Positions 1-40,702 of a stretch of DNA of 64,000 bases are shown piece after piece. The notes below the pieces were generated by a model. That model saw only the letters and a program-made list of their open reading frames with translations. It did no database searches and was not told where the DNA came from. The stretch comes from Alteromonadaceae bacterium (GTDB taxonomy: Bacteria > Pseudomonadota > Gammaproteobacteria > Enterobacterales > Alteromonadaceae): contig WGGB01000001.1 of NCBI GenBank assembly GCA_015491935.1, positions 5,214-69,213 of the forward strand, read 5' to 3'. The stretch's first letter is position 1; the number at the start of each line of letters is the position of its first letter. The position numbers were made by a program, and so were the translations under genes.

Positions 1-3000
1 CCTAGAGTAATGAAAGTATAAATATCATTTTTAAATTCAGTATAGCTTTTTGAATAATTATTACAGGCCATAGCTAGAGCCGATGACTGGTAGAATTCAA
101 AGTTTTCTACAACTTTCTCATTTAAATTATTAATAAGTGCTGAGGGATTGGAGAGCCTTCCTGCTACTTTTCTGGTGATATCAAACAATCCCTTAGATTC
201 CTGATATTTAGAACTTAAGTGCTCACCAGAAGTATCCCACCCTTGCCATATTTTATCTTGTTCAAAGTCACTAATATTCTCAGAAACCTTTTTAGCTATA
301 CTATTGATATCATCTAATAATGATAATTCTTCAAGTGTTATTTCACCATGTACACCAACAGCATTTAACGTTTTTATGATTTTTCTTTTAGCAAACCATT
401 TCAACGGCCAAATTTTTTGTTGTGCTATTTGAAATGATGTAAGCCAATCTGAAGTAGAATGGCTAGATATTGTGTCTAGTGAGAATGTTAACTTCGAACT
501 TCTCACTTGTTCATCTATTACGCCTTTAAATTCTGCTAATGAATTTAGTTTTTCTAACTCATCTATAGCATTTGGCTTATAAATAAAGCTTAATCGGGTG
601 TTTTTTTGTTTAATTAGGAAAGTGACTAAATCATATATTTCTGCATAGTTTTCGTTGTATTCATTTAAATCTGCTAACTGTAATAACTCAACCAATTCTC
701 CAAAGTGTTTGCTCATTACTTGTGATGAGTTTCTCACTGTTTTAATGGTTGAAATCAATTCTGATTGCCAAGCATTTGACCAGTCAGTATTTTGAACAAT
801 AGAAATATCTGAAAGGTTTAAATCCTCTATATCTGTAAAGGCTAAGCCTAGTGTTTTAGCTGTTTCATATAAAGCGTCCAAATCTTCTTTTGAGCCAACA
901 GGAGAGTTTTCATAAGAGTGACCCCAACCTAGATCTACTTTTGTTATCTCTTTATACCTAACATATCTCGATATGGCTTGCCTTGGGGTTATGCCTAAAG
1001 CTGATTCTTGATGAAGTTCATTAACGTATGCATTTAAACTTTTTCGTATGTTAAACAGTTTATCTGCATTCTCATCCCATTCACTACTAGAGGCCGTTTC
1101 TCGTGTAGTCCATGATTTTTTCAGTTGCTCTAATATTGCTCGTTTATTGGCTTTATTACTATGAAGCTCTAAGCATAAGTGATCTAAACCAATCTTATGA
1201 AGGCGGCTATACACAACATTTAATGCGGCCATTTTTTCTGCCACAAATAGAACTTTTTTACCTTTAGCTAGGTTATGGCAAATAATATTTGCTATCGTTT
1301 CTGACTTGCCTGTACCTGGAGGTCCTTCCAAAACAAAGTCTTGGCTTTTTGTTGATGCGTCAATAGCAACTAATTGAGAGCTATCAGCATTTAATGGCGC
1401 AAAAACATCAGAAGGTTTTAACGTATTATCTATGTCATTTTGGTCTTTAAATTGTACATCTTGTTCATATGTTTTTTGAGGGTTTTCTACTAAGTGCTTA
1501 ACGAAAAGGTTAGACTTTAAATCATTAACCCTATCTTTTAAATCTTTCCACATTAAATATTTCGCGAATGAGAAAGTACTTAAAGTCAGTTCTTCTACAA
1601 CCTCAAACCCTTTAATTTCTTTGATTTTATCTCTAACAACTGACCAAATCAAATCTACATCAATACCACTTTCATCTGTTGGTAATGCTTCGTTAAATTG
1701 AGATAAATCAACTTCATAATCATTCTGTAAAAATTCAATTAATGTGGCATTGAAAATAGGTTCTTCCCCATCTCGTTGCTTAATTTTTATTTTTGAACGC
1801 GCACTACTTCGTTTTAACTCAGCAGGTAGAAGGATTAGCGGTGCCTGATAAGTTCTATCGCTTTCAGGTGTTTCTTTCCATTTTATCATGCCAACAGCAA
1901 GAAAAAGTGTATTTGAACCACCTTCTTCTATATCTGTTTTTGATTTTCGGTATAAAGAAAGTAAATTTCTTTCTAGTTTTTTAGAAGAATCATTGGCAAT
2001 TAAGGTATTACTTTTTAATTGCTCTCTGGCAAACTCAGCTTGTAAATCATTACCCACTTTAAATTTGAACAGTTCTTTGTCTCGTGCTTCATTCGCATAA
2101 GGAGTATCACCAGCGGTAATAAAATTAAAACTTTGATTTGAGGCTAATTCATCTTCTAATAAAGCTATGTCCGGACAAAATAATTTAATAGCTACAGCAG
2201 TTTTAGATAAATTTAATAGCCTATTTCGTTTTGTGAGATCAAGTAGTTTTCTTTGCCACTGTTCGACTCTTCCATCTGGCGTCTCAGCTACAGGAAGCTC
2301 TTCTTTTCTAACAGGTGGTAATGCAGGAGCAACAGGTAAAATTTGAATGGTAGTTTCTGCTTTATTACTATTTGCTTCAATACTACTTTCGCCAATGGTC
2401 GGAATTGGTTTAATTTGTCTTTTTCTTGCTTGAGTTAAATCTATAGCGTAAACAAATGTATCTTCTGATTCCTCAGATATAATCTGATCTGCATACTCAA
2501 TAGCTTGACCAAAGGTAATTGGTGAATCAGAAGTTGCCAATGTTGTTTCAAATAGCACTATGTCTTTTGAAGCTACACGCTTTCTAATATCCATCGAATC
2601 ATCGTTGGTCAATAAAGGGAAACATTCATTGATTAACCAAAGACCACAACACGCATGAGTGTCAGTTATCGCAATAATTGAATTGAGGCCTATGTGCTCC
2701 AGACAAGCTGCAAACAATAAGGACAAATCTAAACATGCACCCGTTTTATGATTTTTTATATCACTAGGTAATCTAATTCGTTGTCCTGAATAAGCAAAGC
2801 TAGTCGGTGGTGTAACATAAGCAATCGTTTCATTGGAAATAATATTCCACAATGCAGCAGCCATTAAATAGGGTCTTTCACGCGTTGCTGATTGGTAGCC
2901 ATCCAACTTTGATTCATGCCCAGCAGCCTTCATTACATCGGATGCCTTTTTTACTAATTCTGATATGTAATTTGCGTTAGGGGTAGAAAAAGCGGCTAAT

Positions 3001-3422
3001 AGCTCAGCCATTCGCTCTTCGCCACCCCAGAAATTTTTTGGCAGTAAATTAGTTTGGTATGATTGTGTTGCTAATACTTCATCAGAACTATAGAGGGTGA
3101 AGTTCAAATTAATTTCGATTTGCTCAGTCAATGCATCTAAATATTCATTTGATATTTTTAGAGGTCGTTTTTGTAATAAAAGTGAATGACCTGCTTCAAG
3201 TGAGTCCACGTGCCATTCTTCAGGGGAAAACACTACTGGATCAGAAGTTAAAACAAGCTTTAAATCTGTATACGTTTTGTAGGAATTTTCAGGAATAATT
3301 TCTGTAGAAAAATTCAATTCAAGAGATGTAATAAGTGGATATTGGTTTTGTTGAAATGCAAAAGAGTACACTTTAGCTATTTCTGCATTAATAAAGAGTT
3401 TGATTTTTCCCTGATCCTTCAT
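1..3422 (-). CDS. Large SF1 (Upf1/DNA2-like) helicase, N-terminal ~1140 codons only: uncharacterised N-terminal region, transglutaminase-like Cys/His core, DUF4011-like region, Walker A. The C-terminus lies left of the window.
   Basis: Own translation of the minus strand. ATG at 3422-3420 (MKDQGKIKLFINAEIAKVYSFAFQQNQYPL...) stays open down to codon 5-3, so it is missing from the ORF track only because it has no in-window stop. Motifs read directly: HKTGACLDLSLLFAACLEHIGL...DTHACCGLW (Cys codon 2735-2733); RVEQWQRKLLDLTKRNRLLNL and TLFLAVGMIKWKE..YQAPLILLPAELKR (DUF4011-type, from memory of the family); VLEGPPGTGKSETIANII (Walker A, Lys codon 1307-1305); FVAEKMAALNVV; CLELHSNKANKRAIL. Confidence 0.8.
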   Translation of the reverse strand, partial: MKDQGKIKLFINAEIAKVYSFAFQQNQYPLITSLELNFSTEIIPENSYKTYTDLKLVLTSDPVVFSPEEWHVDSLEAGHSLLLQKRPLKISNEYLDALTEQIEINLNFTLYSSDEVLATQSYQTNLLPKNFWGGEERMAELLAAFSTPNANYISELVKKASDVMKAAGHESKLDGYQSATRERPYLMAAALWNIISNETIAYVTPPTSFAYSGQRIRLPSDIKNHKTGACLDLSLLFAACLEHIGLNSIIAITDTHACCGLWLINECFPLLTNDDSMDIRKRVASKDIVLFETTLATSDSPITFGQAIEYADQIISEESEDTFVYAIDLTQARKRQIKPIPTIGESSIEANSNKAETTIQILPVAPALPPVRKEELPVAETPDGRVEQWQRKLLDLTKRNRLLNLSKTAVAIKLFCPDIALLEDELASNQSFNFITAGDTPYANEARDKELFKFKVGNDLQAEFAREQLKSNTLIANDSSKKLERNLLSLYRKSKTDIEEGGSNTLFLAVGMIKWKETPESDRTYQAPLILLPAELKRSSARSKIKIKQRDGEEPIFNATLIEFLQNDYEVDLSQFNEALPTDESGIDVDLIWSVVRDKIKEIKGFEVVEELTLSTFSFAKYLMWKDLKDRVNDLKSNLFVKHLVENPQKTYEQDVQFKDQNDIDNTLKPSDVFAPLNADSSQLVAIDASTKSQDFVLEGPPGTGKSETIANIICHNLAKGKKVLFVAEKMAALNVVYSRLHKIGLDHLCLELHSNKANKRAILEQLKKSWTTRETASSSEWDENADKLFNIRKSLNAYVNELHQESALGITPRQAISRYVRYKEITKVDLGWGHSYENSPVGSKEDLDALYETAKTLGLAFTDIEDLNLSDISIVQNTDWSNAWQSELISTIKTVRNSSQVMSKHFGELVELLQLADLNEYNENYAEIYDLVTFLIKQKNTRLSFIYKPNAIDELEKLNSLAEFKGVIDEQVRSSKLTFSLDTISSHSTSDWLTSFQIAQQKIWPLKWFAKRKIIKTLNAVGVHGEITLEELSLLDDINSIAKKVSENISDFEQDKIWQGWDTSGEHLSSKYQESKGLFDITRKVAGRLSNPSALINNLNEKVVENFEFYQSSALAMACNNYSKSYTEFKNDIYTFITL

Positions 3423-3798
3423 AACTATATCCTTTGTAAAATAGAAGGTTAATTGATGTTAATATAGTTATGTCATATCTTTATGAAATTGCAATGCTTT
3501 TTATTGAGATATAATATATTTATTGTTTTAAGATAACTTTCACTTGCTTAATTACAAAAATTTAACAATATATGTGTAATGTTTATCATTATTATTTAGA
3601 TGATACGTTTATAGCCATGGTGCGTCAGTATCAGTTTAAAGTACAAAATGGTGAATTAACGCGTTTAAGCTAGGTACTTAAGTTGTAATAATACATAAGG
3701 GCTTTTTATTATAAGTAACAATAATTCAGCCCTTGAATTTATATTACATATACCTCATCTTATGGTTATATTTAATAAATGAGTGATGGGAATAAATT

Positions 3799-4191
3799 AT
3801 GCACATAGAAATAAGTATGCTTGATGGGCAGCAATTAAAAGCTAGCTTTGGTGATCATGAAATTATTAGTGATCAAAGTGTGACTGCGGGTGGTAAAGCT
3901 GAATACCCAGAACCTTTTGATTACTTTTTAGCAAGTATGCCCTTATGCGCGGCTTTTTATATTCGAAAATTTTGTGATGCGCGTGATATTAGCACTGATG
4001 GTATTAAAATATCACAAGATAATGAAAATATTGATCCTGAAAATAAATACAAGAAAAAACTGACGGTATCCGTTGAATTACCCGAGTCTTTTCCTAAAAA
4101 ATATCACAAGGCGTTATTAGCGGCGGCAAATACTTGTACGGTTAAGCGTGTTGTTCAAGCGTCGCCTGAATTTGAAGTGAAGATTGTTTAA
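3799..4191 (+). CDS. OsmC/Ohr family peroxiredoxin-like protein
   Basis: 130 aa. Size and the two conserved Cys contexts (ASMPLCAAFY, AANTCTVKR) are typical of the OsmC family. Confidence 0.7.
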   Translation: MHIEISMLDGQQLKASFGDHEIISDQSVTAGGKAEYPEPFDYFLASMPLCAAFYIRKFCDARDISTDGIKISQDNENIDPENKYKKKLTVSVELPESFPKKYHKALLAAANTCTVKRVVQASPEFEVKIV

Positions 4192-4216
4192 TTAATGAAA
4201 CTGGTATAAAACCAAT

Positions 4217-4254
4217 AACCAGTGTAGATCTATAAACTTAGATATACACTGGTT
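4217..4254. terminator. Candidate bidirectional hairpin between convergent OsmC-like gene and lysA
   Basis: aaccagtgta (4217-4226) pairs perfectly with tacactggtt (4245-4254). The 18-nt loop is long and there is no strong T-tract. Confidence 0.35.
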
Positions 4255-4276
4255 AGTTAGCTATTCGGTTATCCCG

Positions 4277-5548
4277 TTATTCTAGCCAAGCAGGGATTTT
4301 ATCCGCATTAATATATTCTTCATAGCTTGGTCTATCTTTTATCACGCACCATTGGTTTTGATTAATCATTATTTCAGTTGCGGGTAATCGAGTGTTATAC
4401 GCTGAGGACATTACTGCACCATAAGCCCCACAACTTTTAATCGCGACTAAATCATCTTGTTGACAAGTGGCTATTTTTCTAGCTTTAGCAAAGGTATCGC
4501 CTGTTTCACAAACGGGGCCAACAATATCGTAAGTTTGCTCAGAAGAATTAGGGCTATTTTTTACCCGAATAATATCATGGTAGGCATCATACATACTTGG
4601 GCGGATCATATCATTCATACCCGCATCAAGGATCAAAAATTGGCGTTGTTCACCTTTTTTTACATAAACCACTTTGGACACTAAAACACCTGCATTACCA
4701 ACGATTGAACGTCCCGGTTCAACGATGATTTTACACTTAAGTGAGGCTAATTGCTGATATGCTAACTCAGCATATTCTGTTACTTTGGGAATGCTTTCAT
4801 TCGCTTGATATTCAATACCTAAACCGCCACCAATATCAATAACACTAATGGTGTGACCATCGCTATTAAGTGCATTTACAAGCTCAGCTACTTTTGCAAA
4901 CGCTTCTTTAAATGGTGTAATTTCTGTGAGTTGAGAGCCAATGTGCACGTCAACGCCTTGTATTTTTATATTAGGTAAACTTGCCGCTTTTTTGTAAATA
5001 TTGCGCGCTTTATCAATAGGTATTCCAAATTTATTTTCAGCTTTACCCGTTGTTATTTTAGCGTGAGTATTAGCATTTACATCAGGGTTTATGCGAAATG
5101 ATACCGCTGCTATTTTATTTAAACGCGTTGCTATTGTACTAATTTGTTCTAATTCAGGCTCAGACTCAATATTAAATTGAAAGATATTTTGCTTAAGGGC
5201 AAATTCAATTTCTTCTGCCGTTTTAGCAACCCCTGAAAAAACTATTTTGTTGGCGGGAATATTGGCCGTTAATGCACGCTTTATTTCACCTAATGAAACA
5301 ACATCGGCGCCAGCCCCTAATTTGGCTAAAGTGGTTAAAATGGCTTGATTAGAGTTGGCTTTTACCGCATAACAGATTAAAGTGTCTTGCTTGGCAAATG
5401 CTTGTTGGTATTGAATAAAATTATCAGTGATAGCGCGACTAGAATAACAATAAAAAGGTGTTGTTATTTGTTTAGCAATATCATTAATCGCGATATCTTC
5501 AACAAAAAGCTGCTCGTTACGATAATAAAAAGCTTGATTAGAATTCAT
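4277..5548 (-). CDS. lysA: Diaminopimelate decarboxylase
   Basis: 423 aa. PLP-dependent Orn/DAP/Arg decarboxylase fold 3 motifs: YAVKANSN (PLP Lys), DIGGGLGI, CETGD, GAYG. Confidence 0.92.
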   Translation of the reverse strand: MNSNQAFYYRNEQLFVEDIAINDIAKQITTPFYCYSSRAITDNFIQYQQAFAKQDTLICYAVKANSNQAILTTLAKLGAGADVVSLGEIKRALTANIPANKIVFSGVAKTAEEIEFALKQNIFQFNIESEPELEQISTIATRLNKIAAVSFRINPDVNANTHAKITTGKAENKFGIPIDKARNIYKKAASLPNIKIQGVDVHIGSQLTEITPFKEAFAKVAELVNALNSDGHTISVIDIGGGLGIEYQANESIPKVTEYAELAYQQLASLKCKIIVEPGRSIVGNAGVLVSKVVYVKKGEQRQFLILDAGMNDMIRPSMYDAYHDIIRVKNSPNSSEQTYDIVGPVCETGDTFAKARKIATCQQDDLVAIKSCGAYGAVMSSAYNTRLPATEIMINQNQWCVIKDRPSYEEYINADKIPAWLE

Positions 5549-5675
5549 AACTATAAAAGTAGAGTAAATATATATTGAATAACTTATTCGTAATTACCAC
5601 ACTATTCAAGTTTTTTATAACCTAAATTCGCGATATAAAATAAAGATAAAAATTATAATTAAAAGGTTGTTATTT

Positions 5676-7073
5676 ATGGAATGGTTAACTGTATTACCAC
5701 CACTGCTCGCCATTGTAGTCGTTATTTGGAAAAAAGAAGTGATTATGGCGCTGCTATTGGCGGTGTTTTCTTCTGAATTTTTATTAGTTCTTCAAAAATC
5801 AGAACATTCTAATGTACTTTTTTATGCCTTTATAAGTTTCATTGAACGCATTATTTCGGTATTTAGTTTACCTAGCAACACGCGTTTACTCATTTTTAGC
5901 TTATTAATTGGCACATTACTCGCTTATTTACGTAATTCAGGTGGAGTGAGTGCGTTAGTTGAGCGCTTAATAAATAAAGGGGTTGCCAAGTCTCGACGTC
6001 AAGTAGGTAGTGTTACCTTTTTTACGGGGCTTGTTATTTTTATTGAATCTAATTTAAGCGTATTAACCGCAGGTATTTTATCACGAGGCCTATTTGATAA
6101 ATTTAAAATGAGTCGTGCGCGTTTAGCCTTTATGATTGATTCAACGAGTGCCCCTGTATGTATTTTAATACTATTAAACGGTTGGGGGGCTTATGTTCTG
6201 GGTTTATTGAATAATTATGAATTAGGACAAACATCTACATCGATACTTTGGGGAACAATACCACTTAATTTTTATGCCATTATTGTTTTGTTAATAGTGT
6301 TTTATACTGTCGTGGCAGATAAAGTTTATGGTCCGATGAAACAAGCAGAAAAAGAGTTAAATAAATTAAGTGATGACCCCGCATTGCAAGAAGAATTAGT
6401 AAAACCAACGAAAGCACGTTTTATGTTGATACCATTGGCTACTATGATTTTAAGTATGTTCTTTTTTATGTATTGGACAGGTAATGGTGATTTTACGCAG
6501 GGAAGTGGTGGTACTTCAGTACTTTATGCTACGGTATTAGCTTGTGTAGTTGCTTATTTTTTACTTTATTTTTCAAAACGATATACACATCAAGAACTCG
6601 TTGATGTGGGTTTTAATGGTATGTCAGAGTTATTACCTCTAGTCACGATAGTGCTGTTTTCATTAACGTTAGGTGCTAGTTTAAAAGAGTTAGGTACGGG
6701 GGTTTTTATTGCTGGGGTGGTGGGCGATTATCTACCTTTAGTTTTTATTGTCCCGATGTTGTTTTTAGCGGGTGCTGTTATTTCGTTTAGCACAGGTACC
6801 TCTTGGGGAACTTTTGCCATTCTTATTCCTATTGGAGTTCCACTTATTCAAACACTTGGTTTACCTCCATCATTAGTTATTGCGGCTATTTTAGGAGGTG
6901 GAGTGTTTGGTGATCATTGTTCACCTATTTCAGATACTACCTGTATATCAGCTATTGCTTCGGGTTGTAATTTGTTAGAGCACGTTAAAACACAATTGCC
7001 ATATTCTTTATTTGCAGGCGCTTTAACATTAGTTTGTTATACCATTGTAAGTATTATTATGGTGGGTGTTTAG
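5676..7073 (+). CDS. Na+/H+ antiporter NhaC family membrane transporter
   Basis: Polytopic membrane protein with the C-terminal motif [11 protein letters not shown] shared with the paralog at 10875-12611. ATG at 5676 (MEWLTVLPP) is preferred over the upstream TTG 5667 used in the track. Confidence 0.8.
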   Translation: MEWLTVLPPLLAIVVVIWKKEVIMALLLAVFSSEFLLVLQKSEHSNVLFYAFISFIERIISVFSLPSNTRLLIFSLLIGTLLAYLRNSGGVSALVERLINKGVAKSRRQVGSVTFFTGLVIFIESNLSVLTAGILSRGLFDKFKMSRARLAFMIDSTSAPVCILILLNGWGAYVLGLLNNYELGQTSTSILWGTIPLNFYAIIVLLIVFYTVVADKVYGPMKQAEKELNKLSDDPALQEELVKPTKARFMLIPLATMILSMFFFMYWTGNGDFTQGSGGTSVLYATVLACVVAYFLLYFSKRYTHQELVDVGFNGMSELLPLVTIVLFSLTLGASLKELGTGVFIAGVVGDYLPLVFIVPMLFLAGAVISFSTGTSWGTFAILIPIGVPLIQTLGLPPSLVIAAILGGGVFGDHCSPISDTTCISAIASGCNLLEHVKTQLPYSLFAGALTLVCYTIVSIIMVGV

Positions 7074-7090
7074 TACTGTAATTATAAAAC

Positions 7091-7118
7091 AAAGCAGGAC
7101 AAGTACTTGTCCTGCTTT
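7091..7118. terminator. Bidirectional rho-independent terminator (NhaC-type gene / aldB convergent pair)
   Basis: Perfect 14+14 palindrome aaagcaggacaagt/acttgtcctgcttt, flanked by an A-run on the left and a T-run on the right. Confidence 0.75.
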
Positions 7119-7131
7119 GTTGACTATTTTT

Positions 7132-8652
7132 TTAGAAAAAGCCTAGTGGGTTAGGATCGTAACTGACCAGCATATTTTTAGTCTGTTGATAATGCTCTAA
7201 TGCCATTTTATGAGTTTCTCGACCAACACCTGATTTTTTATAACCGCCAAATGCTGCATGAGCAGGGTAAAGATGATAGCAGTTTGTCCAGACTCGACCT
7301 GCTTGTATTTTACGTCCCATGCGATAGGCTTTATTCATATCACGAGTCCATACGCCTGCTCCTAAACCAAATTCAGAGCTATTGGCTATTTCAAGCGCTT
7401 GTGCTTCATCTTTAAAAGTACACAGTGATATAACGGGGCCAAAAATTTCTTCTTGGAATACCCGCATATCATTTGTTCCTTTTAACAAGGTTGGTTGAAT
7501 GTAATAACCATTTTCGTATTCACCTTCAATTTGAGCTATTTCACCGCCAATTAAGACTTCTGCGCCTTCTTTTTTACCAATATCAATATATTTTAATATT
7601 TTATCAAACTGTTGTTGTGAAGCTTGTGCACCAACCATAGTTTCGGTATCAAGCGGATCACCGCGTTTTATTTGTAATGAACGTGCAATGACTTTTTCGA
7701 TAAATTTATCGTAAATATCTTCTTGTACTAATAAACGAGATGGGCAGGTACAGACTTCGCCTTGATTAAAATAGGCAAGCACCGCACCTTCAATGGCTTT
7801 ACTTAAAAACTCATCTTCAAAATCCATCACATCATTAAAGAAAATATTAGGTGATTTTCCACCGAGCTCTACCGTTGATGGGATAATACTATCTGCGGCA
7901 CATTTTAATATGTGCGAACCCACAGGGGTTGAACCTGTAAAGGCTATTTTAGCGATGCGTTTACTAGTAGCTAAAGCTTCACCAGCTTCTTTACCAAAAC
8001 CATTAATAATATTTAAGACACCAGCGGGCAACAAATCTTCAATGAGTTCCATTAATATTAAAATAGAGGCAGGGGTTTGCTCTGCTGGTTTTAAAACTAT
8101 ACAGTTACCTGCTGCTAAGGCTGGAGCAAGTTTCCATGCGGCCATTAATATAGGAAAATTCCATGGAATTATTTGTCCCACTACGCCTAAGGGTTCATGA
8201 AAATGATAGGCAACCGTATTTTCGTCAATCTCACCAATTGAACCTTCTTGTGCGCGTAAACAACCAGCAAAGTATCTGAAATGATCAACGGCTAATGGTA
8301 TATCTGCTGCTAAGGTTTCGCGTACGGCTTTGCCATTATCCCAAGTTTCGGCAACAGCAAGCATTTCTATATTTTGTTCTATTCTATCGGCTATTTTTAA
8401 TAAAGTATTTGAACGTTCGGTTACCGATGTTGCTCCCCAAGCATCTTTTGCTTTATGAGCGGCATCTAAGGCTAAATCTATATCTAAGGCACATGAACGT
8501 GGAATTTCACAAATTACTTTTCCTGTGGTCGGACTAATATTGTCAAAATATCGTCCTTGCTGAGGTTCAACCCATTGACCACCAATATAATTTTGGTAAC
8601 GTTGTTTAAAGTTAACGATGGCACCATCAGTGCCTGGAGCTGCATAAATCAT
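7132..8652 (-). CDS. aldB: NAD(P)-dependent aldehyde dehydrogenase, AldB-like
   Basis: 506 aa, collinear with E. coli AldB as I remember it: [43 protein letters not shown] (catalytic Cys), EEIFGPV, C-terminal HYQQTKN.LVSY. Confidence 0.9.
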
Positions 8653-8815
8653 CTCTGTTTCCTTTTGTTGTAATTTTAGTTAAGACAAGGTAATTTAGTT
8701 ATTTCTAATTAATTAAAGTTAATAATTTACCTGAGTGTTAATTAATCATAGTTAATAAAATAAAATGTGCTGAAAATTTATTAAAGTTGACTCAAAATCC
8801 AAAAAGAGTTGTTAA

Positions 8816-9745
8816 ATGATCACTGGAAAAATTAAAAATAATCGTAATAACCCACAAGTATTGGTTGAAAACAAAATGACTTTTGCAGCTCACGAATGTG
8901 AGTTAGGTATTTATGACACGTATCAGCAAGCTAAAAGAGTGGCATTAAGCTCAGATCAGCTATTATTTTGCGGTATGGTTACGGGTAAAAAAATTATGCA
9001 TACTGAAAATGATCACTATCACAGTGCTTTTTTACCGCATGAGTCTTTTGTTATTGCACCCAATAAGAAAGTTGAAATAGATTTTCCTATCGCGCAAATA
9101 GATAATCCGACAACTTGTATTGCTATTGAAATATCGACGGATAAGGTGCAACAGATCAGTCAAAAATTAAATCAAAAAATTGTTATGCCAAAAGAATTTG
9201 GGCAATGGCAATATCAGGATGAATTACTGCACACCCATCACAGCAGTGAAACACAAATATTATTAAATCGTATCGTACATATTTTCACTGAAAATCATCC
9301 TGACAGAAACTACCTTGTAGAGCTTGCTATTACTGAATTGACAGTACGGTTATTGCGACATCAAGCACGTGATTTTTTAGTTTCTTTTAGTACGCAGCAA
9401 CCTGATCATAATGGGCTTAATGCGGTGCTTGCTTATATTGATAAACATTTAAGTGAAAATATTGATGTTGATTTGTTATGTCGTATTGCTTGTATGAGTC
9501 GTTCGCGTTTTTACACTCAGTTTAAGCAACAATTAGGTTGTTCGCCTATTGCTTATCAACAACAATTACGTCTTAAACAAGCGGCTTCTATGCTTAAACA
9601 ACATCTAAACATTACCCAAGTTTGTTTTAACTTAGGCTTTATTAATCCTAGCCATTTTAGCCGTAGTTTTAAATTGTTTTATGGTATGACGCCGAGTCAG
9701 TATAAATTACGACATCAGCCAAAAAACGCTTCTTATCAACATTAA
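8816..9745 (+). CDS. AraC family transcriptional regulator
   Basis: C-terminal double HTH (LCRIACMSRSRFYTQFKQQLGCSPIAYQQQLRL..., GFINPSHFSRSFKLFYGMTPSQY). Divergent from the ALDH gene. Start uncertain: ATG 8816 or internal Met. Confidence 0.85.
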   Translation: MITGKIKNNRNNPQVLVENKMTFAAHECELGIYDTYQQAKRVALSSDQLLFCGMVTGKKIMHTENDHYHSAFLPHESFVIAPNKKVEIDFPIAQIDNPTTCIAIEISTDKVQQISQKLNQKIVMPKEFGQWQYQDELLHTHHSSETQILLNRIVHIFTENHPDRNYLVELAITELTVRLLRHQARDFLVSFSTQQPDHNGLNAVLAYIDKHLSENIDVDLLCRIACMSRSRFYTQFKQQLGCSPIAYQQQLRLKQAASMLKQHLNITQVCFNLGFINPSHFSRSFKLFYGMTPSQYKLRHQPKNASYQH

Positions 9746-9817
9746 TTACTTTTATCTTGAGTTCAGTTAAGTAGAGGTGCTTTTGTGATTAACGAAAAAC
9801 TAATATATTAGATAAAG

Positions 9818-10654
9818 TTAGAAATAATTTTTACTGGTTAAATAATAGATAAAGTCAACCATTTCTTGTTGCGCCTTAGTGCTATTTTCGCCAAGATTTT
9901 TATCTTGGCGCTCTGCTTCTATATTAATGTAGCGTATATGGTGCATTTGCGCGTAAACCGATAACGAACCATCATCTTCTTTAGGATCCGTTGTTACGAT
10001 AGGATTTTGTAAAACGACGTTCCAATGATATTTACGCATCATGTGAAAATCTATCGGTTCAGTCACATAAAATAAATTATCTTCATCATGAAAGTCAGCA
10101 ATATTGACATCAATTAAAAAATTTTCGCCTTTACCTAATTTACTTTTATAACGATAAATAGAGACATCCCCTCGACCATGTTGATGATCGCCTGCAAATC
10201 CTTCGGTATTATTGTGCATTGCTACCCAAGTTATCGGTTGTTTGGCTTGATTTAGTTGGGCTAAGACAAATTTGCCTAATTTAAAGGCTCGTTTTATCGC
10301 TTTTCGAGCTGTTGAGCTATTTAGTTTTAATTTAGGATTTAATTTTTTTATAGAGGAGGCAATACCCGCAATGGTAAATAAACGATTAGGGTCAACATAA
10401 ACTTGGGTTGTTTTTTGCTGTTCTTTGATGTGTAAAGTAACATTACGCGTACCTTGTTGGCGCATAATAATAAAGGCTCCGCCTTGTTTTTTTACTTTAT
10501 CAGCCACATAAGTATTACCAACAAATTCACTTTCATGAGGGGCATAAAATATTTGTTTTTGTGCGCTGGCAGGTTTACCTACTACTTCAAGGTAAATATC
10601 CTGTTGGTTTGGAAAAATAAGCGCGTGTGATAATAAAAAAGCTAATTTGATCAT
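9818..10654 (-). CDS. Hypothetical protein, possibly a secreted zinc-hydrolase-like enzyme
   Basis: 278 aa with a weakly hydrophobic N-terminus (MIKLAFLLSHALIF). H40-E-S-E43 ... VDPNRLF ... H147 (VAMHNNTEG) is spaced like the HxxE...H zinc ligands of M14/AstE-type hydrolases. The assignment is tentative. Confidence 0.35.
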   Translation of the reverse strand: MIKLAFLLSHALIFPNQQDIYLEVVGKPASAQKQIFYAPHESEFVGNTYVADKVKKQGGAFIIMRQQGTRNVTLHIKEQQKTTQVYVDPNRLFTIAGIASSIKKLNPKLKLNSSTARKAIKRAFKLGKFVLAQLNQAKQPITWVAMHNNTEGFAGDHQHGRGDVSIYRYKSKLGKGENFLIDVNIADFHDEDNLFYVTEPIDFHMMRKYHWNVVLQNPIVTTDPKEDDGSLSVYAQMHHIRYINIEAERQDKNLGENSTKAQQEMVDFIYYLTSKNYF

Positions 10655-10874
10655 AATAAATTAAAATATGGTTACTTTATTGTTGTTACGTTTGTTATTG
10701 TATTTGTTGTTTTAATTTTTATTTTATAACGATATAGTACACTTAAATTTAAGGTTATTGCTAACCATAATTCAATTATTTACTCGTCATTTTTCTTAAT
10801 TTAATAATAATGATTTGCTAAATCTTTACCTCAGGTTATAGTTTAATTATTGTCTCATTATTCCTCTGCTTTAT

Positions 10875-12611
10875 ATGCCATTAACCAATAATCAAATAGC
10901 GCTCATTATTTTTATATTAAGTTTAATTGCTGCGCTGTTTGTCCAGCAAAATGTCAGTAAACAATGGCAAGAGCAAAGTTATGTTTATCAAATTTATAAA
11001 AATTCAGCAGGTGTTGATGCTTATAAATATAAAGGTAAAGAGCAATTAATTACGCACGCCGTTGCTTATGAAAACTCACCTTTAAATCAGCAACACTTAA
11101 ATCAATTAACGGAACAACCGCGTTTAATTGAGCAATGGGTGTATAAGGTTAATGATAAAGGTGAAAAAGTTTTACAACTACTTAAACCAGGTTTTCATTT
11201 TGGTTTATGGTCATTATTGCCCGCTGCTATTGCGATTATTTTATGCTTGTTAACCAAAGAGCCCATTACCGCATTATTTGGCGGTATTGTTGTTGGTGCT
11301 TTTATGTTGGGGCGTTTTGATATTACCGACAAAGTGTTAGTACCAAGTTTAGCCAGTGAAAGTGCGGCAGCCATATTGTTGTTGTATTTATGGTTGTTAG
11401 GCGGGTTAATTGGTATTTGGTCAAAAACGGGAGCCGCTTATGCTTTTGCTCAAACCATGACTAAACATTTTGTACGCGGTGCTCGTTCGGCAAAAGTGGT
11501 GAGTTGGTTGTTAGGCATTATTTTTTTTCAAGGTGGTACTGTCTCAACTGTTTTAGTGGGCACTACTGTTAGACCTTTAGCGGATAAAGCAAAGGTGAGT
11601 CATGAAGAGATGAGTTATATTGTTGATTCTACCGCGTCACCTATCGCCTTAATTTTGGCTTTTAATGCTTGGCCTATCTATGTTCAAGCATTAATTTTTG
11701 TGCCTGGTGTTACTTTTTTAGCGACAGAGGCTGATAGAATTGCTTTTTTCTTTGCTAGCATTCCCTTTAGTTTTTATAGCATTTTAGCTGTAACAGGGAC
11801 TTTTTTACTGAGTATTAATATTACCAAATTTAGTGGAAAAGGTATTCGTGCAGCTCACCAACGAGCTGCGACAACAGGGCAGTTAGATGCACCCGACGCA
11901 CGTCCATTAAGTGCTAAGGAACTACAACATAGCCGTATTCCAGAGTATTACACGCCTAATTTTATTGAGTTTATTTTACCCTTAATTGTTTTAATTATTA
12001 TTGCTATTAGTAGTTTTATTTTTCTCGGTTCACCTAAAGTAAATTGGGCATTTGGTGCAGCATTAATGTTGTCTGTTATTATTGCCTTAATAAAAGGGAT
12101 GAAATTAACCGATTTACTCGACGGTTTTAACCAAGGTTTAAAAGGGGTTGTTGTCGCTTCTGTTATTTTAATGCTTGCTATAACTATTGGTAGTATTAGT
12201 AAAGAAATTGGTGGTGGTTTATATTTAGTTGATTTATTAGGGAAAAACATTCCATATTGGGCATTACCAGTCATGTTACAAGTGATCACTATGATCATTG
12301 CTTTTTCAACGGGTACAAGCTGGGGAACTTACGCTATTGCGTTTCCATTAGCTATGCCGCTGGCATGGACGATTGCACAATCACAAGGTTTAGCTAACCC
12401 TGAGTTATTTATGATGGTGTGTTTTGCTACGGTGTTAAATGGCAGTATTTATGGCGATCAGTGTTCCCCCATTTCAGATACCACTATTTTAAGTTCGATG
12501 ACAACGGGATGTGATTTAATGGACCATGTTAAAACACAATTATTTCCAGCAACCTTAACCGCAGGGATCGCTGGAGTATTATGGACATTAACCGTTTTAC
12601 TTGCTGCTTAG
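10875..12611 (+). CDS. Na+/H+ antiporter NhaC family transporter with ~100-aa N-terminal extension
   Basis: 578 aa, polytopic. [11 protein letters not shown] and DHVKTQL motifs match the paralog at 5676-7073. N-terminal TM helix plus a soluble segment. Confidence 0.8.
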
Positions 12612-12669
12612 CTTCTTGTTATTTCGCCTATTTGCGTATTAAATAAGTGATTAATATAAAATAATAAAT

Positions 12670-14658
12670 ATGACTAAAAAATTCTTTTTTGTTTTCATTG
12701 CCTTTACATTCATCATAGTGGTTATAAAGTTGACTTATAATAAAACAAATCAAGCTAAAAAGGCTCCCGTAAAGATGACATTAGAGCAACAAGTTGCACA
12801 GAAAATAATGATTGATTTACGCTATTATTGTCCTGATATGAATGAAAATACCAACGCAGAAAGCGAGTTAGAAAATCACTTAGAAGGTTATATAGGACAA
12901 AATAATCCGCATAATACTTCAGTGAATGAGCAAAAAAAATGTTTTACACCATTAACACGATTACCGAAAGAACTGGCCGAGTTAATTAAAACGACTTCAT
13001 TAGGTGGAGTGATTTTATTTGATGATAATTTAGTTGATAGTAAACAAATCATTCAATTAACGAGTGATTTGCAAAATGCAGCATTAAGTTCTGATACTGG
13101 TTTACCGTTATTTATATCTGTAGATCAAGAAGGAGGGCGAGTGGTGCGTTTACCTCGCAATATAACCACCTCTTTTACGGGCAATATGGCAATAGGCGCA
13201 ACATATGCAAAACACGGTACAGAGTATGCCTTAAAAGTTGGTAAAATACTCGGTAATGAATTATATGCTTTAGGTTTTAATGTGGATCACGCACCTGATA
13301 TTGATGTGAACATTAATGCGAATAATCCCGTGATAAATGTACGCTCTTTTGGTGAAGACCCTAAAATGGTGGCTGATTTAGGTATTGCCATGCTCGAAGG
13401 TTTACAAAGTCAAGGGGTTATTGCAACACTGAAGCATTTTCCAGGTCATGGTGATACCAATATAGACAGCCATACTGGTTTGCCTGTCGTAAATCATAAT
13501 TTAACCACGGTTGAAAAGATTGATTTATACCCATTTCAGCAGGCAATTGATCATAGTCATGTTGACATGATCATGACAGCACATATTCAGTATCCAGCCT
13601 TAGATAATTCAGTTATGGTGAATAAACGCGGTGAATCTATGATAAAACCCGCGACTTTATCTAAAAAAATATTAACAGATTTATTACGTAATAAAATGGG
13701 CTATAAAGGATTAGTAGTCACTGATGCGTTAGATATGGCAGGCATTAGTCATTTTTTCACACCAGTAGAAGCGGTACTAAAAACTTTTAAAGCAGGCGCT
13801 GATATTGCTTTAATGCCCATAAAAATACGTAAGCCTTCAGATATTAAAGTATTTAAAAACTTTATTAGTTTATTAACAAAACGCATTTTAGATGATCCGC
13901 TTACCTTGCAACAAACTAATGCTTCTGTTGAACGTATTCTCAAGGTTAAAAAGAAGATAATGGTAACAAAATTATCACCTGAAAAAATTAAAGAGAAAAT
14001 AACTCAGGCGAATAAAGTATTAGCAAGCCCTGCTCATCGAAAGGTTGAGCTAGCATTAGCTCTGAATGCGATTGTTGAAATACAAAATAACCTTGAGCAA
14101 TCTAGTTCAGATAAAGCCTCTGTTTATAAATCAGCACAGCATTCATGGCAAGCATCTATTCGTCGAGTACATATTCTATTTCCACAGCAACAACAAAGTG
14201 ATGCCATGACAATGGCACTTGAGCAGTATTCAGATCAATTTCCTTGGCAAATATCGAGTTCAAGTCTTGAAAACTATAATCTAGAAACGCTTTTTCAACA
14301 GATTAAAAAAAGTGATTTACTTATTGTTGCTAGTGACAGTCAAAAAACAGCCGTTGAATTAGGTGGTGTTGATAATTTAGCTCAAAAAAATTCTTTGATA
14401 AACTCTGATTTTGGGGATAACAGCATAAAAGCATTATCTTTTGCAAAAAAGCATCATAAAAAAACAATATTTATAACCTTAAAAACGCCTTATAATTTAG
14501 CTAAATTTTTACCTTTGTCTGATTGTGTTTTGACAAGTTTTGATGGTAATTTATACCAGAATAAAAATAACCAGTTAGTTGGCGCTGCTTTTGAGGCTTT
14601 AGCTGCTGTCATTACGGGTAAATTTTTACCTCAAGGTAAACTCCCCGTGACTATTTAG
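12670..14658 (+). CDS. Glycoside hydrolase family 3 beta-N-acetylhexosaminidase (exported, two-domain YbbD/NagZ-like)
   Basis: 662 aa with an N-terminal signal/anchor. GH3 motifs: SVDQEGGRV, KHFPGHGDT, VVTDALDM. Confidence 0.85.
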   Translation: MTKKFFFVFIAFTFIIVVIKLTYNKTNQAKKAPVKMTLEQQVAQKIMIDLRYYCPDMNENTNAESELENHLEGYIGQNNPHNTSVNEQKKCFTPLTRLPKELAELIKTTSLGGVILFDDNLVDSKQIIQLTSDLQNAALSSDTGLPLFISVDQEGGRVVRLPRNITTSFTGNMAIGATYAKHGTEYALKVGKILGNELYALGFNVDHAPDIDVNINANNPVINVRSFGEDPKMVADLGIAMLEGLQSQGVIATLKHFPGHGDTNIDSHTGLPVVNHNLTTVEKIDLYPFQQAIDHSHVDMIMTAHIQYPALDNSVMVNKRGESMIKPATLSKKILTDLLRNKMGYKGLVVTDALDMAGISHFFTPVEAVLKTFKAGADIALMPIKIRKPSDIKVFKNFISLLTKRILDDPLTLQQTNASVERILKVKKKIMVTKLSPEKIKEKITQANKVLASPAHRKVELALALNAIVEIQNNLEQSSSDKASVYKSAQHSWQASIRRVHILFPQQQQSDAMTMALEQYSDQFPWQISSSSLENYNLETLFQQIKKSDLLIVASDSQKTAVELGGVDNLAQKNSLINSDFGDNSIKALSFAKKHHKKTIFITLKTPYNLAKFLPLSDCVLTSFDGNLYQNKNNQLVGAAFEALAAVITGKFLPQGKLPVTI

Positions 14659-15034: not shown

Positions 15035-16837
15035 ATGAAATCAAAGCTAATACAATTTAAATCTTTTGTGACGCTAGTAATACTAGGTTTAAGCCTAGTT
15101 ATTACAGGACAGGCTTGGGCGCAAAATTCAGCTTTAGAGACTAAAAAAGCTATTTTAGTAAGTAAATTTATTAAATATGTAGAGTGGCCTGAACAAGCAG
15201 TTAAATCTAAATTCGAAATAGGAGTTTATGAAGATACTAAATTATATAATATATTTAACCATTATTTTGCTGATAAATCGATTAAAGACAAAAGTATTGT
15301 CGTTACTTTAGTTAATAGTCTTAATAAAGCTAAAAAAGTTAATTTATTGTATATTCCGTCTTCAAAAAGTAGAGATTTATTTAAAATAGCAGAAAAAACG
15401 AGCGGTTCTTATGTGTTATTAGTGAGTGAAAATAATAAAAACACTCCTAAAACAATGATTAATCTTTTATTTAATCAAGATAAAAGTAAAATAGCCATCA
15501 AAATAAATTATGCTAACACCAAGCGTGAAAAGTTAAAAGTTCCAGAAGCGTCATATTTTTTAGATGGAAAAAATGATGCTCATGTTCTAGCGTTAAGTGA
15601 ACGAGCGGTTAAACAAAACCAACTTAAGAAAGAATTAAAAATCTTAAACAAATATGTTTTACAGCAAAAAAATCAGTTATCTCAACTAAAAGATAAACTT
15701 AGTGCGAACGAAGAAAAACTAGCCAAATATAATCTTGCTCTGAAACAACAAACAGCAAAATTAAAAATAGCTCAAAAACAAAATGATAAGCAACAAAAAA
15801 CACTTGCATCAGCGACTAAAAAAGTAGAAAAATTAAGTAAAAATCTTGCGGATAAAACTAAACAGTTAAATATGACCAAGGAAGAATGGTTAGGAGCTGA
15901 AGCAGAAAAGTCAGCGCAACAAGAAGCTAAAATTAAAGAATTATCTGAAAAAATAGCTAAACAAGAAAAACTAGTTAAAACTCAAATTAGTCAATTGGCC
16001 AAAGTGAAAAAACAAAATAAGCAATTAGCAAACTATAGTAATTTGTTTTATATTGCTTTAATTATCGCATTAGTGGCTTTAGCAATAGCAGGTTTATTTT
16101 GGAGTAGAAATAAAAAATCTACCGCGATAATTAATGAAGCAGAGAAGGTTGCTAAAGAAGCTCAGTCAACTCTAGCAACGAGAGAACAACAGCTAGTAAA
16201 ATCTGAAAATATAGCAGCATTAGGTTATATCGCTTCCGATGTTACATATGCTGCAGGTAATTCAGTTGAAGATGCATTAGAGCATAGTGTTGAAATAAAA
16301 GATTTGAAAAATATTGAAACACTTAAACCTGCAGTAGCTTTATTAGAAAATTATAATCAAATAGCGACGGATCAAGATGAAGATGAAAAACAATCTTTTG
16401 ATCTAGTGGCTTATATTAATAAGCTGATGAGTCTTTTCAGTGTAGAATTTCAAGCAAGTAATATTCAATATATTTTCGCTGGTGAAAGTAAATTAGTGGT
16501 TAATTCAATTCCTGGCCATATTGCTTTGGTTTTATTAAACCTAGTTAATAATTCAATAAAACACGGTTTTGATAATAAAGGTAACGGTAAAATATCAATA
16601 TTGATTGAAAAAACACCGCAAGGTGGGGCTAAACTTGTTGTTCAGGATAATGGTGCGGGTATGGATAAGAAAACTCAGCAAGAAATTTTTACGCCATTTT
16701 TTACCACTAAGCCAGAACGTGGTTATTTAGGTCTAGGAATGAGTACTGTAGAAGATATAGTTAAAAATAAATTAACTGCCAATATTAAATTGCAAAGTCA
16801 AACGGGTAAAGGCACAACAATTACTATTACACTATAG
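15035..16837 (+). CDS. Histidine-kinase-like membrane protein: signal peptide, YfiR/DUF4154-like domain, long coiled coil, TM, degenerate DHp, HATPase_c
   Basis: ATG 15035 (MKSKLIQFKSF...AWA) preferred over GTG 15023. Periplasmic AILVSKFIKYVEWPE...LLYIPSS...VLLVSEN is DUF4154-like. TM helix LFYIALIIALVALAIAGLFW. N box LLNLVNNSIKHG, G1 DNGAGM, F FTPFFTTK, G2 GLGLGMS. Confidence 0.8.
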   Translation: MKSKLIQFKSFVTLVILGLSLVITGQAWAQNSALETKKAILVSKFIKYVEWPEQAVKSKFEIGVYEDTKLYNIFNHYFADKSIKDKSIVVTLVNSLNKAKKVNLLYIPSSKSRDLFKIAEKTSGSYVLLVSENNKNTPKTMINLLFNQDKSKIAIKINYANTKREKLKVPEASYFLDGKNDAHVLALSERAVKQNQLKKELKILNKYVLQQKNQLSQLKDKLSANEEKLAKYNLALKQQTAKLKIAQKQNDKQQKTLASATKKVEKLSKNLADKTKQLNMTKEEWLGAEAEKSAQQEAKIKELSEKIAKQEKLVKTQISQLAKVKKQNKQLANYSNLFYIALIIALVALAIAGLFWSRNKKSTAIINEAEKVAKEAQSTLATREQQLVKSENIAALGYIASDVTYAAGNSVEDALEHSVEIKDLKNIETLKPAVALLENYNQIATDQDEDEKQSFDLVAYINKLMSLFSVEFQASNIQYIFAGESKLVVNSIPGHIALVLLNLVNNSIKHGFDNKGNGKISILIEKTPQGGAKLVVQDNGAGMDKKTQQEIFTPFFTTKPERGYLGLGMSTVEDIVKNKLTANIKLQSQTGKGTTITITL

Positions 16838-30323: not shown

Positions 30324-32258
30324 CTAAAGCGACATTGGTTTATCTATATAGTAACCCTGACAGCCATCAATAAATAATTTTTCTAAGGTATGCTTTTCTT
30401 CTAATGTTTCAACACTTTCCGCTAATACATTAATACTTAAACGGTGAGCTAAATCCACCATCAAACGAATAAAATATTGATTGTTTTTATCCTCATCAAT
30501 GTCACGAGTATAAGTGCTATCCATTTTGATAAAATCAGGCTTTAAATCTTTAAAAAACTTAAATGAGGTTAAACTAATACCAAAACGTTCTACCGTAATA
30601 CGAGCGCCAGAACGGTGTAATAAATCAATAAAACGTTTACTATTTCTAATGTTTTGCTGTAAACCATATTCAGTTATTTCAAAAACTAAGCGTGAAGCAA
30701 CTTGATGTTCTTTTAATAGTCTACGTTCAAGCCAAATTAAAAAATGTTCATCACTAATAGAGCGAGAGCTAATATTTAAGCCAAAACTTTTATCAAGCAA
30801 ATTTTTATTTTTAATTTCTTCAATAGCTTTTTCAATAATCAAACGATCAATATCAACAATTTTATCTAATTTTTCAGCCATAGCGATAAAGGATACCGTG
30901 GGTAGCATTTCGTCATTTGAGTTAATAAAGCGCGCCAATATTTCACCATAAACCTTAGAATTTCGAGAATTGGGTTGAATAGGCTGAACTAATAATGAAA
31001 CCCTTTTTTGTTCAATAACATGCTCTATTTCTTGACGCCAATTTTTATTTCCATAAGTGGCACTAGGATCTTTTAAAATATTTGCGTCTTTTTGTGCAAA
31101 CCAAGAATTAATATTTTGAGTTTGCGCAATACTAATGGCAGTATCGACTAAAGCGAGTAATTCCCCTAAAGGCGATTGCCAATTAAAGGCAATGAGTCCC
31201 GTATAGGCTATAGAGTCTAAATCGGAAGCTTGTTTGTATTCATTAAATTTATCCGTTAATATTTTTGCGTATTTTTCACCATCGGGTAATTGCCGATTAG
31301 GTAATATAGTGGCAAAATCACAACTATTCATTCTAAATATTTGCCCGCCTGTAAATTGCATAACGGCTGACTGCATTATTTTAGCAACTTTACTTATATA
31401 GCGATCACCTTCATTAAAACCTCTGATCTTATTAATAGATTGCAACTCAGAACAACGCGTTATAATTAATACACCAAATTTAGCATCACCATCTTTAGTA
31501 ACATTATTCTCAAAATATTGAACAAATTTATTACGATTATTTAAACCCGTAATAGTATCGGTGAAGGCTTTTTCTTCTAAAATAAGAGAGCTTTTTTGCT
31601 GTGATTCGATTAGTGATTTTATTTCACTAATACCTTCTTTTAAATAGTCAAAAGTACTATCAGAATAGATTTTTTTGTTTTTAAGAATTTGTGAAAATTG
31701 TTTTTTTATCTGCTCGCCGATCCCTTTATATAATTTTTGATAACGTTTATTACCTAATGTAGTGACAATAAAGCAAAATATAACCATTGCTAAAGCAAAT
31801 ATTAATAATAATTGTTGAAATAAATTAAGATCTTTATTAAAAGATAATTGAAAATGAATACGCACGTTTTGTTTTTTTAATATTAAATTAACAGGTTTAG
31901 GTACCATAAAATCAAAATACGGATATTGATTTTTATTTTGTTGTGAAAATAGTTTTTTACCTGAAATAATAGAAATGTCTACTACATTGAACGTAAATAA
32001 GTTATTCAACGTTTGTGCAAGTTGCTTTGCCGTAGTTTCTGTATTATTAATAACATTTGTTTTTAAATTATTATCAATGTTAGAGGTATCAATTGTAATT
32101 AAAGTTTGTTCAGCAAGATAACGTATAGATTTTTTTCCAAAGGCTTGTTGTTGGTTTATGTTTTCCATAAAAAGTAAGGTAAATACCACCGCTATACTGA
32201 TATAAAATAACAAACTCAAGCCGAGATTTCTTAGTAGTAACTGTGAATATGAATACAT
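30324..32258 (-). CDS. Two-TM membrane protein with degenerate GGDEF and EAL domains (LapD/CsrD-like architecture)
   Basis: 644 aa: TM1, a ~130-aa periplasmic segment, TM2, a GGDEF-like domain (DTITGLNNRNKF present, but the GG(D/E)EF site reads NSCDF), and an EAL-like domain (EIL, LNISS, FEITE, ERFG in place of DDFG, IKMD, AESVET, QGYY). Confidence 0.8.
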   Translation of the reverse strand: MYSYSQLLLRNLGLSLLFYISIAVVFTLLFMENINQQQAFGKKSIRYLAEQTLITIDTSNIDNNLKTNVINNTETTAKQLAQTLNNLFTFNVVDISIISGKKLFSQQNKNQYPYFDFMVPKPVNLILKKQNVRIHFQLSFNKDLNLFQQLLLIFALAMVIFCFIVTTLGNKRYQKLYKGIGEQIKKQFSQILKNKKIYSDSTFDYLKEGISEIKSLIESQQKSSLILEEKAFTDTITGLNNRNKFVQYFENNVTKDGDAKFGVLIITRCSELQSINKIRGFNEGDRYISKVAKIMQSAVMQFTGGQIFRMNSCDFATILPNRQLPDGEKYAKILTDKFNEYKQASDLDSIAYTGLIAFNWQSPLGELLALVDTAISIAQTQNINSWFAQKDANILKDPSATYGNKNWRQEIEHVIEQKRVSLLVQPIQPNSRNSKVYGEILARFINSNDEMLPTVSFIAMAEKLDKIVDIDRLIIEKAIEEIKNKNLLDKSFGLNISSRSISDEHFLIWLERRLLKEHQVASRLVFEITEYGLQQNIRNSKRFIDLLHRSGARITVERFGISLTSFKFFKDLKPDFIKMDSTYTRDIDEDKNNQYFIRLMVDLAHRLSINVLAESVETLEEKHTLEKLFIDGCQGYYIDKPMSL

Positions 32259-40641: not shown

Positions 40642-40702
40642 ATTTAACTTTTTATTTTAAGTTGAAAATTCTAAGGAACACCTAGCTCGACGTTGATAAA
40701 AT

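Follow-up and report, generated by a model that had tools for sequence, protein, structure and literature searches.

A predicted anti-phage gene of the ProA family inserted alone between phoD and osmC in an Alteromonadaceae bacterium

We analysed a stretch of 64,000 nucleotides from an Alteromonadaceae bacterium (contig WGGB01000001.1 of assembly GCA_015491935.1, positions 5,214 to 69,213), referred to here as the window, with the focus on the long reading frame that runs off its left edge. On the minus strand, positions 1-3422 were found to hold 1,140 stop-free codons from an ATG at 3422 to the window edge, with stops in the same frame just 5' of this ATG, and translation thereby bore out the frame proposed in the original prediction, a note made from the letters of the window alone. 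To its right, and outside the inserted segment described below, lies the core neighbour, an osmC-like gene (3799-4191, plus strand; Pfam OsmC, E 2e-11). An exact-sequence look-up of the OsmC-like protein led to two records that reach further left than the window, the European Nucleotide Archive metagenome scaffold L007 and the NCBI assembly GCA_027047705.1 (L008), which are 99.96-99.97% identical in DNA to window positions 1-12000 (window position = L007 position - 6202). The original prediction had proposed such an extension to the left, and in these records the full frame of 1,918 aa was recovered, followed by a convergent phoD gene. The 1,140 aa of the window are the N-terminus of the L007 open reading frame (ORF), and the protein is identical throughout. 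The window frame is the first 1,140 codons, or 5' 59%, of a proA-family gene of 1,918 codons, and the other 778 codons, which lie left of the window, were read from L007 and L008.

All sequence motifs quoted in the original prediction were found at the residues given there, Cys230 and Lys706 included. They are GACLDLSLLFAACLEHIGL at residues 228-246, which includes Cys230, DTHACCGLW at 254-262, KLLDLTKRNRLLNL at 392-405, LAVGMIKW at 508-515, APLILLPAEL at 527-536, the Walker A motif GPPGTGKS at 700-707 (with Lys706) and CLELHSNKANK at 750-760. The domain order of the full protein is a beta-sandwich, a transglutaminase-like core, a Pro-rich linker, DUF4011, a split superfamily 1 (SF1) helicase of the Upf1/Dna2 type, an MTES_1575 nuclease domain and a tail. 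All window coordinates given for its parts are on the minus strand. The low-complexity Pro-rich linker lies at 2268-2411 (residues ~338-385) and was recognised from the sequence, with a predicted local distance difference test score (pLDDT) below 50 for residues 338-359. DUF4011 follows at 1728-2249 (residues 392-565; Pfam PF13195, E 5e-42, full-length match to positions 1-158 of 158), and the first part of the helicase core (AAA_11, Pfam PF13086) at 1005-1385 (residues 680-806), with its Walker A motif at 1302-1325. The predicted succession of DUF4011 and an SF1 helicase was thus confirmed within the window. The helicase core is split by an insertion of about 500 residues (807 to ~1315), the start of which fills window positions 3-1004; residues 807-1140 gave no Pfam match and hold no known domain, and AAA_11 resumes at about residue 1316.

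In the part of the protein that lies left of the window, Pfam placed AAA_12 at residues 1384-1580 and MTES_1575, a Vsr-like restriction endonuclease of the PD-(D/E)xK type, at 1631-1728 (E 4.8e-33). Helicase motifs I, II, III and VI are intact (GPPGTGKS at 700, DEASQ at 1333, GDPKQ at 1357 and RRLNVAITRA at 1563), as are the nuclease motifs FRID at 1655 and ECDGATYH at 1675 in the L007 continuation. It had been expected that the protein would continue into a PD-(D/E)xK nuclease and a DUF3320 domain. The nuclease was found, whereas the C-terminal tail of about 190 residues (the last 203 were scanned) gave no Pfam match at E <= 10 and hence no match to DUF3320. No match to a HEPN family was obtained when the whole protein and residues 1-130 were scanned against Pfam.

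The full protein scored 1,868.7 bits against the NCBIfam equivalog model NF058533.1, named 'anti-phage protein ProA', which has a curated cut-off of 1,500. The alignment places residues 20-1881 on model positions 1-1883 of 1903 in a single stretch and includes the N-terminal module. In addition, the PADLOC check proposed for the extended locus gave a match to the candidate system PDC-S37 (1,119.6 bits, profile positions 9-1459 of 1550). With the equivalog match above its cut-off and the PADLOC match, the earlier view of a defence-type gene held. We predict from these profile matches that the protein is a member of the ProA family and a paralogue of Hhe. It resembles other ProA proteins in length class (1,900-2,000 aa), in the end-to-end match above the cut-off, and in having the beta-sandwich and transglutaminase-like head, DUF4011, the split SF1 helicase and MTES_1575. 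Its score, low beside those of other members (1,792-2,152 bits), places it in a somewhat divergent marine branch, and it differs from them by its first 11 residues, which are taken from a NYN gene (see below). PDC-S37 is a single-gene candidate whose profile starts at residue 385, leaving the N-terminal module of 385 residues outside the profile.

We then compared the locus with those of relatives. The left neighbour in L007 and L008 is phoD, which is convergent with proA, and its stop lies 106 bp from the proA stop. In the empty site of L009, where the flanking DNA is 96-97% identical and the OsmC protein is identical, phoD stands directly before osmC, and the same arrangement was found in L023 (~91% DNA identity, LysA 92%). 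A more distant relative, L025 (LysA 80%), also lacks ProA. Compared with the empty sites, the occupied allele has 6,113 extra bases, which contain the ProA ORF alone plus flanks of 180 bp and 106 bp. As phoD adjoins osmC in both L009 and L023, the acquired segment is the 6,113 bp with ProA only, and the comparison argues for horizontal acquisition of proA as a single-gene insertion. Checking presence and absence in relatives with OsmC and LysA as anchors had been suggested, and the gene was indeed absent from L009 and L023. Horizontal acquisition as predicted is thereby supported, together with the deviant codon usage and the close copies in other genera described below. An island boundary, or a multi-gene island, was not what the extended contigs revealed, the inserted segment being the single gene proA.

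A direct repeat of 84 nt, consisting of the 3' end of phoD, marks the edges of the insertion (L007 3678-3761 and 9791-9874, 82% identity, spacing 6,113). The empty sites L009 and L023 each have it once, and in both this single copy is nearer to the right repeat copy than to the left one. The right copy, at window positions 3589-3672 (plus strand; L007 9791-9874), is therefore the original phoD end, now severed, and bounds the insertion on the right. It is the left copy that completes phoD, and this one seems to have arrived with the cassette. A sliding comparison of the L007 and L009 phoD genes, in search of a donor-derived tract, gave identities of 92-94% over the last 200-300 nt and about 96% overall, and other stretches were equally low. 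Between the severed end and osmC, positions 3673-3798 are native phoD-osmC intergenic DNA, co-linear with L009 and L023, and hold the old terminator-like hairpin of phoD. A perfect 14-bp hairpin was found between proA and phoD; a terminator scan around proA gave nothing above the shuffled expectation and did not flag this hairpin.

The gap between osmC and lysA (window ~4192-4276) was observed to be a second variable spot in the relatives. L025 has a YhaV/PrlF toxin-antitoxin pair there beside an 89-aa duplicated lysA fragment (11693-13053), L023 has an 85-aa ORF (11339-11596), and L009 has about 150 extra nt with a repeated TTAATTAATGAAACTGGTAT (10400-10585). The duplicated gene end in L025 is the same signature as that of the ProA insertion.

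The start of the gene was found to be chimeric. In L001, L012, L015 and L016 a 240-aa NYN + OST-HTH gene stands directly upstream of ProA (L001 9105-9909; L012, L015 and L016 ~9035-9902), while L005 has a 198-aa NYN gene downstream of ProA. The NYN proteins begin LKDKEKIALFID, and the ProA of NYN-bearing loci begins MENLGINAEIAKV. In the window, the 166 bp upstream of the ATG and the first 33 coding bases align with the NYN upstream region and start, whereas codon 12 onward aligns with ProA (NAEIAKVYSF...). Codons 1-11, MKDQGKIKLFI (3390-3422, minus strand), derive from the NYN gene start according to these alignments. The junction, between ...TTTATT and AATGCAGAA, falls within a short stretch that is alike in the two genes (ATYGAYGCWGA in NYN, ATTAATGCAGA in ProA). 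The alignments show that the NYN gene was deleted in frame, which has left ProA with the ribosome-binding site of NYN, its first 11 codons and the putative promoter region before them. The family does not conserve the first ~10 residues of ProA, and residue 20 is where the NCBIfam model begins. NYN is also absent from L013, L017, L018 and L019-L022. Given its absence in the window and in numerous other loci, NYN is not obligatory as a partner of ProA, and it matched no PADLOC or NCBIfam defence model.

The upstream spacer had been described as very AT-rich and about 375 bp long, and it measured 376 bp with a GC content of 24%. Between the ATG and the severed phoD end and native intergenic DNA mentioned above, it comprises cassette-borne DNA, a putative promoter region (3423-3588, minus strand) homologous to the region upstream of NYN elsewhere. 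In alignments with other ProA loci (BLAST E 7e-11 to 1e-15), this region has the conserved blocks AAAGTTATYTTAAAACAATAAATAT and ATTGCWATTTCAT...ATATGRCATAA. A promoter scan around proA gave no sites above the shuffled expectation.

The codon usage of the frame also sets it apart. Its Arg codons are AGA 17, AGG 5, CGA 12, CGC 1, CGG 0 and CGT 3, compared with AGA 69, AGG 11, CGA 83, CGC 120, CGG 17 and CGT 255 in the other 38 ORFs of the window (chi-square p = 1e-14). The codon-usage distance of the frame was 14.6 standard deviations (SD) above a length-matched null, whereas the highest of the 38 other genes, each taken leave-one-out, reached 4.1 SD. The claim of deviant Arg codons, AGA/AGG/CGA here and CGT/CGC elsewhere, was thus substantiated, with the deviation coming mainly from Arg, Ser and Phe. 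The GC content of the frame (0.341) and its GC at third codon positions (0.231) are the same as the window average, so that any donor would have been of similar base composition. The next codon-usage outliers were the ORFs at 51237-51791 and 37341-37829 (z 4.1 and 2.9; GC 0.44 and 0.385), perhaps highly expressed genes. Unusually AT-rich ORFs (GC 0.29-0.30) were observed at 15035-16837 and 30324-32258.

Copies of ProA with 83-92% DNA identity were found in Colwellia sp. MB3u-41, Pseudoalteromonas denitrificans DSM 6059 and an Alcanivoracaceae metagenome-assembled genome (MAG), with 90-92% for the Colwellia and Pseudoalteromonas copies. The homology with the copies in other genera ends at the ORF ends, and the LysA of the host, an uncultured gammaproteobacterium resembling Colwellia, is only 65-68% identical to that of Colwellia/Litorilituus. 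An 88%-identical ProA is found in the cargo of a Tn7-like element (TnsA-like, TniB, TniQ) in L001/L002. More distant members stand singly among unrelated genes or in defence islands: one place is between gcvP and an antiporter gene, another next to greA-carAB with an insertion sequence nearby, and a third adjoins Fic and Hachiman. Homologues were present on 483 plasmid records, 221 of them from Klebsiella, and 214 of the 483 were typed as conjugative. Among phage genomes there was a single match, to one unannotated faecal contig. Varied sites, plasmids and close copies across genera speak for recent transfer and fit ProA as a mobile and self-sufficient single-gene system.

Several further features were seen at these loci. 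The Tn7-like cargo of L001/L002 (258-5721 and 15775-21773) further includes a protein that combines NERD with a Top1 zinc ribbon, and a Y4jQ protein of 1,109 aa, a match to the PADLOC candidate PDC-M60A. In L005 (384-9702), an 84%-identical ProA comes right after SbcCD and a three-gene cluster of CTD1, MComp1 and an SMC-like ATPase, which looks like another conflict system. MAGs under the labels 'uncultured Bacteroidetes' and 'Sulfurimonas sp.' (L012, L013) contain ProA copies with 85-91% DNA identity as well, either because these are mis-binned gammaproteobacterial contigs or through cross-phylum transfer. A ProA-like gene that is common on Klebsiella/Raoultella plasmids, with 36% identity over residues 15-1097, is annotated as a DUF3320 domain-containing protein.

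The N-terminal module was studied with structure models. In an AlphaFold model of residues 1-385 (pLDDT 73), strands at residues 9-126 are followed by an alpha/beta domain. The strands form an all-beta domain, an Ig/RhoGDI-like sandwich (3045-3398), for which Foldseek returned RhoGDI, UNC119, FN3 and the beta-sandwich of transglutaminase 2 (TG2) with a probability of ~1.0 and E 2e-3 to 2e-2; the region (residues 1-130) gave no Pfam match. Since the matches of this model were mostly to the beta-sandwich, a separate model of residues 130-345 was made, built on 73 sequences, which reached a pLDDT of 90.9. Nearly all its Foldseek matches were to transglutaminase-like or papain-like folds: the putative proteases 3kd4 and 3isr, PNGase, TgpA, a bacterial transglutaminase, CPR-C4, PeiP and LapG, and further Rad4, arylamine N-acetyltransferase and TG2. 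The core lies at 2421-3011 (residues ~138-334). Cys230 is the first residue of the helix 230-243 and His256 stands at the beginning of a strand. No variation was seen at C230 and D232 in alignments of 32 and of 73 homologues, nor at D274 in that of 32 sequences, and H256 is retained in at least 90% of both sets. Conservation and model together give Cys230, His256 and Asp274 as a candidate triad (2733-2735, 2655-2657 and 2601-2603). Residues ~138-334 are likely, though not proven, to be transglutaminase-like. For the papain/transglutaminase-like core of the original prediction, the evidence is thus at the level of the fold, from the model, a modest Foldseek match list and Cys-His-Asp conservation, and not from Pfam and PDB sequence searches.

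The same module was proposed earlier to be an undescribed fusion, which did not hold. Homologues of ~1,900-1,950 aa align over 98-99% of the query with the N-terminus included, and the 385-residue module matched 3,070 representatives of 50%-identity clusters, 614 of them at E <= 1e-30. It sits N-terminally, almost always in proteins of 1,700-2,300 aa, and four out of four distant module-bearing proteins exceeded the ProA cut-off. Moreover, the architecture was published in 2013, when giant proteins with a transglutaminase-like peptidase, an SF-I helicase, an MTES_1575 Vsr-like endonuclease and domains of the winged helix-turn-helix (wHTH) type were described and proposed to act on their own, in the absence of modification genes, the peptidase providing an additional line of defence (Anantharaman et al., PMC3710099). 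The module is the standard conserved head of the ProA family rather than a new fusion. The window protein is like those giants in its predicted N-terminal transglutaminase-like peptidase, SF-I helicase and Vsr-like endonuclease, and in being a predicted stand-alone protein without modification genes. The giants, however, have an N-terminal HEPN domain where the window protein has the beta-sandwich, and a C-terminal wHTH pair that overlaps DUF3320 where its tail gave no match (PMC3710099).

We consider it very probable that the frame is part of a single-polypeptide ProA anti-phage protein that was acquired alone as the 6,113-bp insertion. Based on the families involved and on the 2013 analysis (PMC3710099), ProA would work by itself, without modification genes. 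It would recognise the invading nucleic acid and load on it, after which the SF1 motor may translocate with ATP and the Vsr-like nuclease may cut. The transglutaminase-like cysteine peptidase module could have a sensing, regulatory or second-line proteolytic role.

Several points weigh against this reading. The window has only 59% of the gene, and the fragment alone scored 987.7 bits (model positions 1-1106) against NF058533.1, below the cut-off of 1,500 because it is truncated. The literature search found no primary paper behind the ProA name and no experiment on the gene or a close homologue, and the anti-phage role therefore rests on the curated NCBI name and the PADLOC candidate status. 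In Pseudomonas aeruginosa, a large DUF4011 gene flanking the defence hotspot cDHS1 is reported to be core to every isolate (PMC10250203), so that the roles of some relatives may be fixed or lie outside defence. Nor was an integrase, transposase or recombinase gene found in the 6,113-bp insert. As to the peptidase, the transglutaminase matches in Foldseek were modest (E >= 0.017, with 0.017-0.1 among the top ones; template modelling score 0.3-0.39, probability up to 0.99). Pfam DUF553 was matched at E 0.07-0.16 in 3 of 16 members and Transglut_core at E 0.26 in 2 of 16, below the gathering score, and searches of the N-terminal region against PDB-chain sequences, with a single sequence and with a profile, gave nothing useful.

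The original prediction saw the frame as the first gene of a multi-gene system with its partners left of the window. A NYN gene does often adjoin close homologues, upstream in L001, L012, L015 and L016 and downstream in L005, and some homologues stand among other defence-like genes. In L007 and L008, however, the convergent phoD stop is reached after 106 bp and the insert has no partner-type ORF, while NYN is deleted here, is lacking at the other loci named above and matches no PADLOC model. At this locus the extended contigs refute the multi-gene reading, and we give it hardly any weight. A decayed, non-functional remnant of a NYN-ProA cassette, or of a larger integrative element, whose partner and integrase are gone, would agree with the chimeric N-terminus left by the NYN deletion and with a direct repeat that is typical of site-specific integration, yet comes without a recombinase gene. 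This we regard as improbable: the 1,918-codon frame is intact with all helicase and nuclease motifs kept, the proteins of the window and L007 agree in every one of the 1,140 residues open to comparison, in records with nearly identical DNA, and what the deletion altered are residues that the family does not conserve and the NCBIfam model does not cover, with many homologues lacking NYN altogether.

Neither does a role in host housekeeping, as a DNA repair or RNA quality-control helicase-nuclease, seem at all probable. The helicase and Vsr-like domains resemble repair enzymes, homologues are labelled 'very-short-patch-repair endonuclease' by JGI, and the DUF4011 gene of P. aeruginosa is core (PMC10250203). 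On the other hand, the gene varies in presence among relatives with 91-97% DNA identity and has foreign codon usage, near-identical copies occur in other genera, on the Tn7-like element and on plasmids, homologues neighbour Hachiman, SbcCD-linked SMC systems and NERD, and the protein matches a curated anti-phage equivalog. The remaining question of membership concerns Hhe and Mokosh. Hhe has DUF4011, an SF1 helicase and a Vsr-like nuclease in a stand-alone gene as well, and its models matched the full protein at E 1e-247 (NCBIfam NF042953.1) and 8e-176 (PADLOC). The NCBIfam match, however, failed its cut-off of 2,000 with 825.2 bits in two stretches that cover the DUF4011, helicase and nuclease parts only, the profile having no counterpart of residues 1-480, whereas the ProA match runs end to end. 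MkoA of Mokosh, with which kinship had been suggested through Upf1-like helicases, matched with 41 bits (fragment) and 103 bits (full length). This kinship holds for the SF1 motor (AAA_11/AAA_12) and for nothing beyond it, as the accessory domains differ and neither a Mokosh partner gene nor a PLD nuclease was found in the insert. That the protein belongs to Hhe or Mokosh instead of ProA has a vanishingly small probability in our judgement.

The preferred reading of a self-sufficient ProA gene also bears on the annotation: the left-edge frame is best labelled as a truncated proA (anti-phage helicase-nuclease), not as a new defence architecture, and no partner genes need to be sought for it. 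The locus is a clean natural case of one defence gene placed between two core genes, and as occupied and empty alleles coexist among close relatives, it is suited to population or expression studies.

Beyond this, we tentatively put forward a doubtful but possible reading in two parts, in which the Cys230-His256-Asp274 module is an active peptidase that gates the nuclease, and the cassettes of the osmC area move by an undescribed route. By cleaving a protein of the phage or the host, or by processing ProA, an active peptidase might switch on the helicase-nuclease; no published mechanism of a protease-gated single-polypeptide nuclease was found in the literature. The osmC-area cassettes (ProA here, YhaV/PrlF in L025) would each carry a surrogate copy of the 3' end of the neighbour gene, and the way they move may be recombinase-independent or trans-acting.

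Elsewhere in the window, positions 40566-41600 hold a tRNA cluster, Gly(GCC)-Cys-Leu(TAA)-Gly-Gly-Leu, with repeated units of identical scores, which looks like a locally amplified array.

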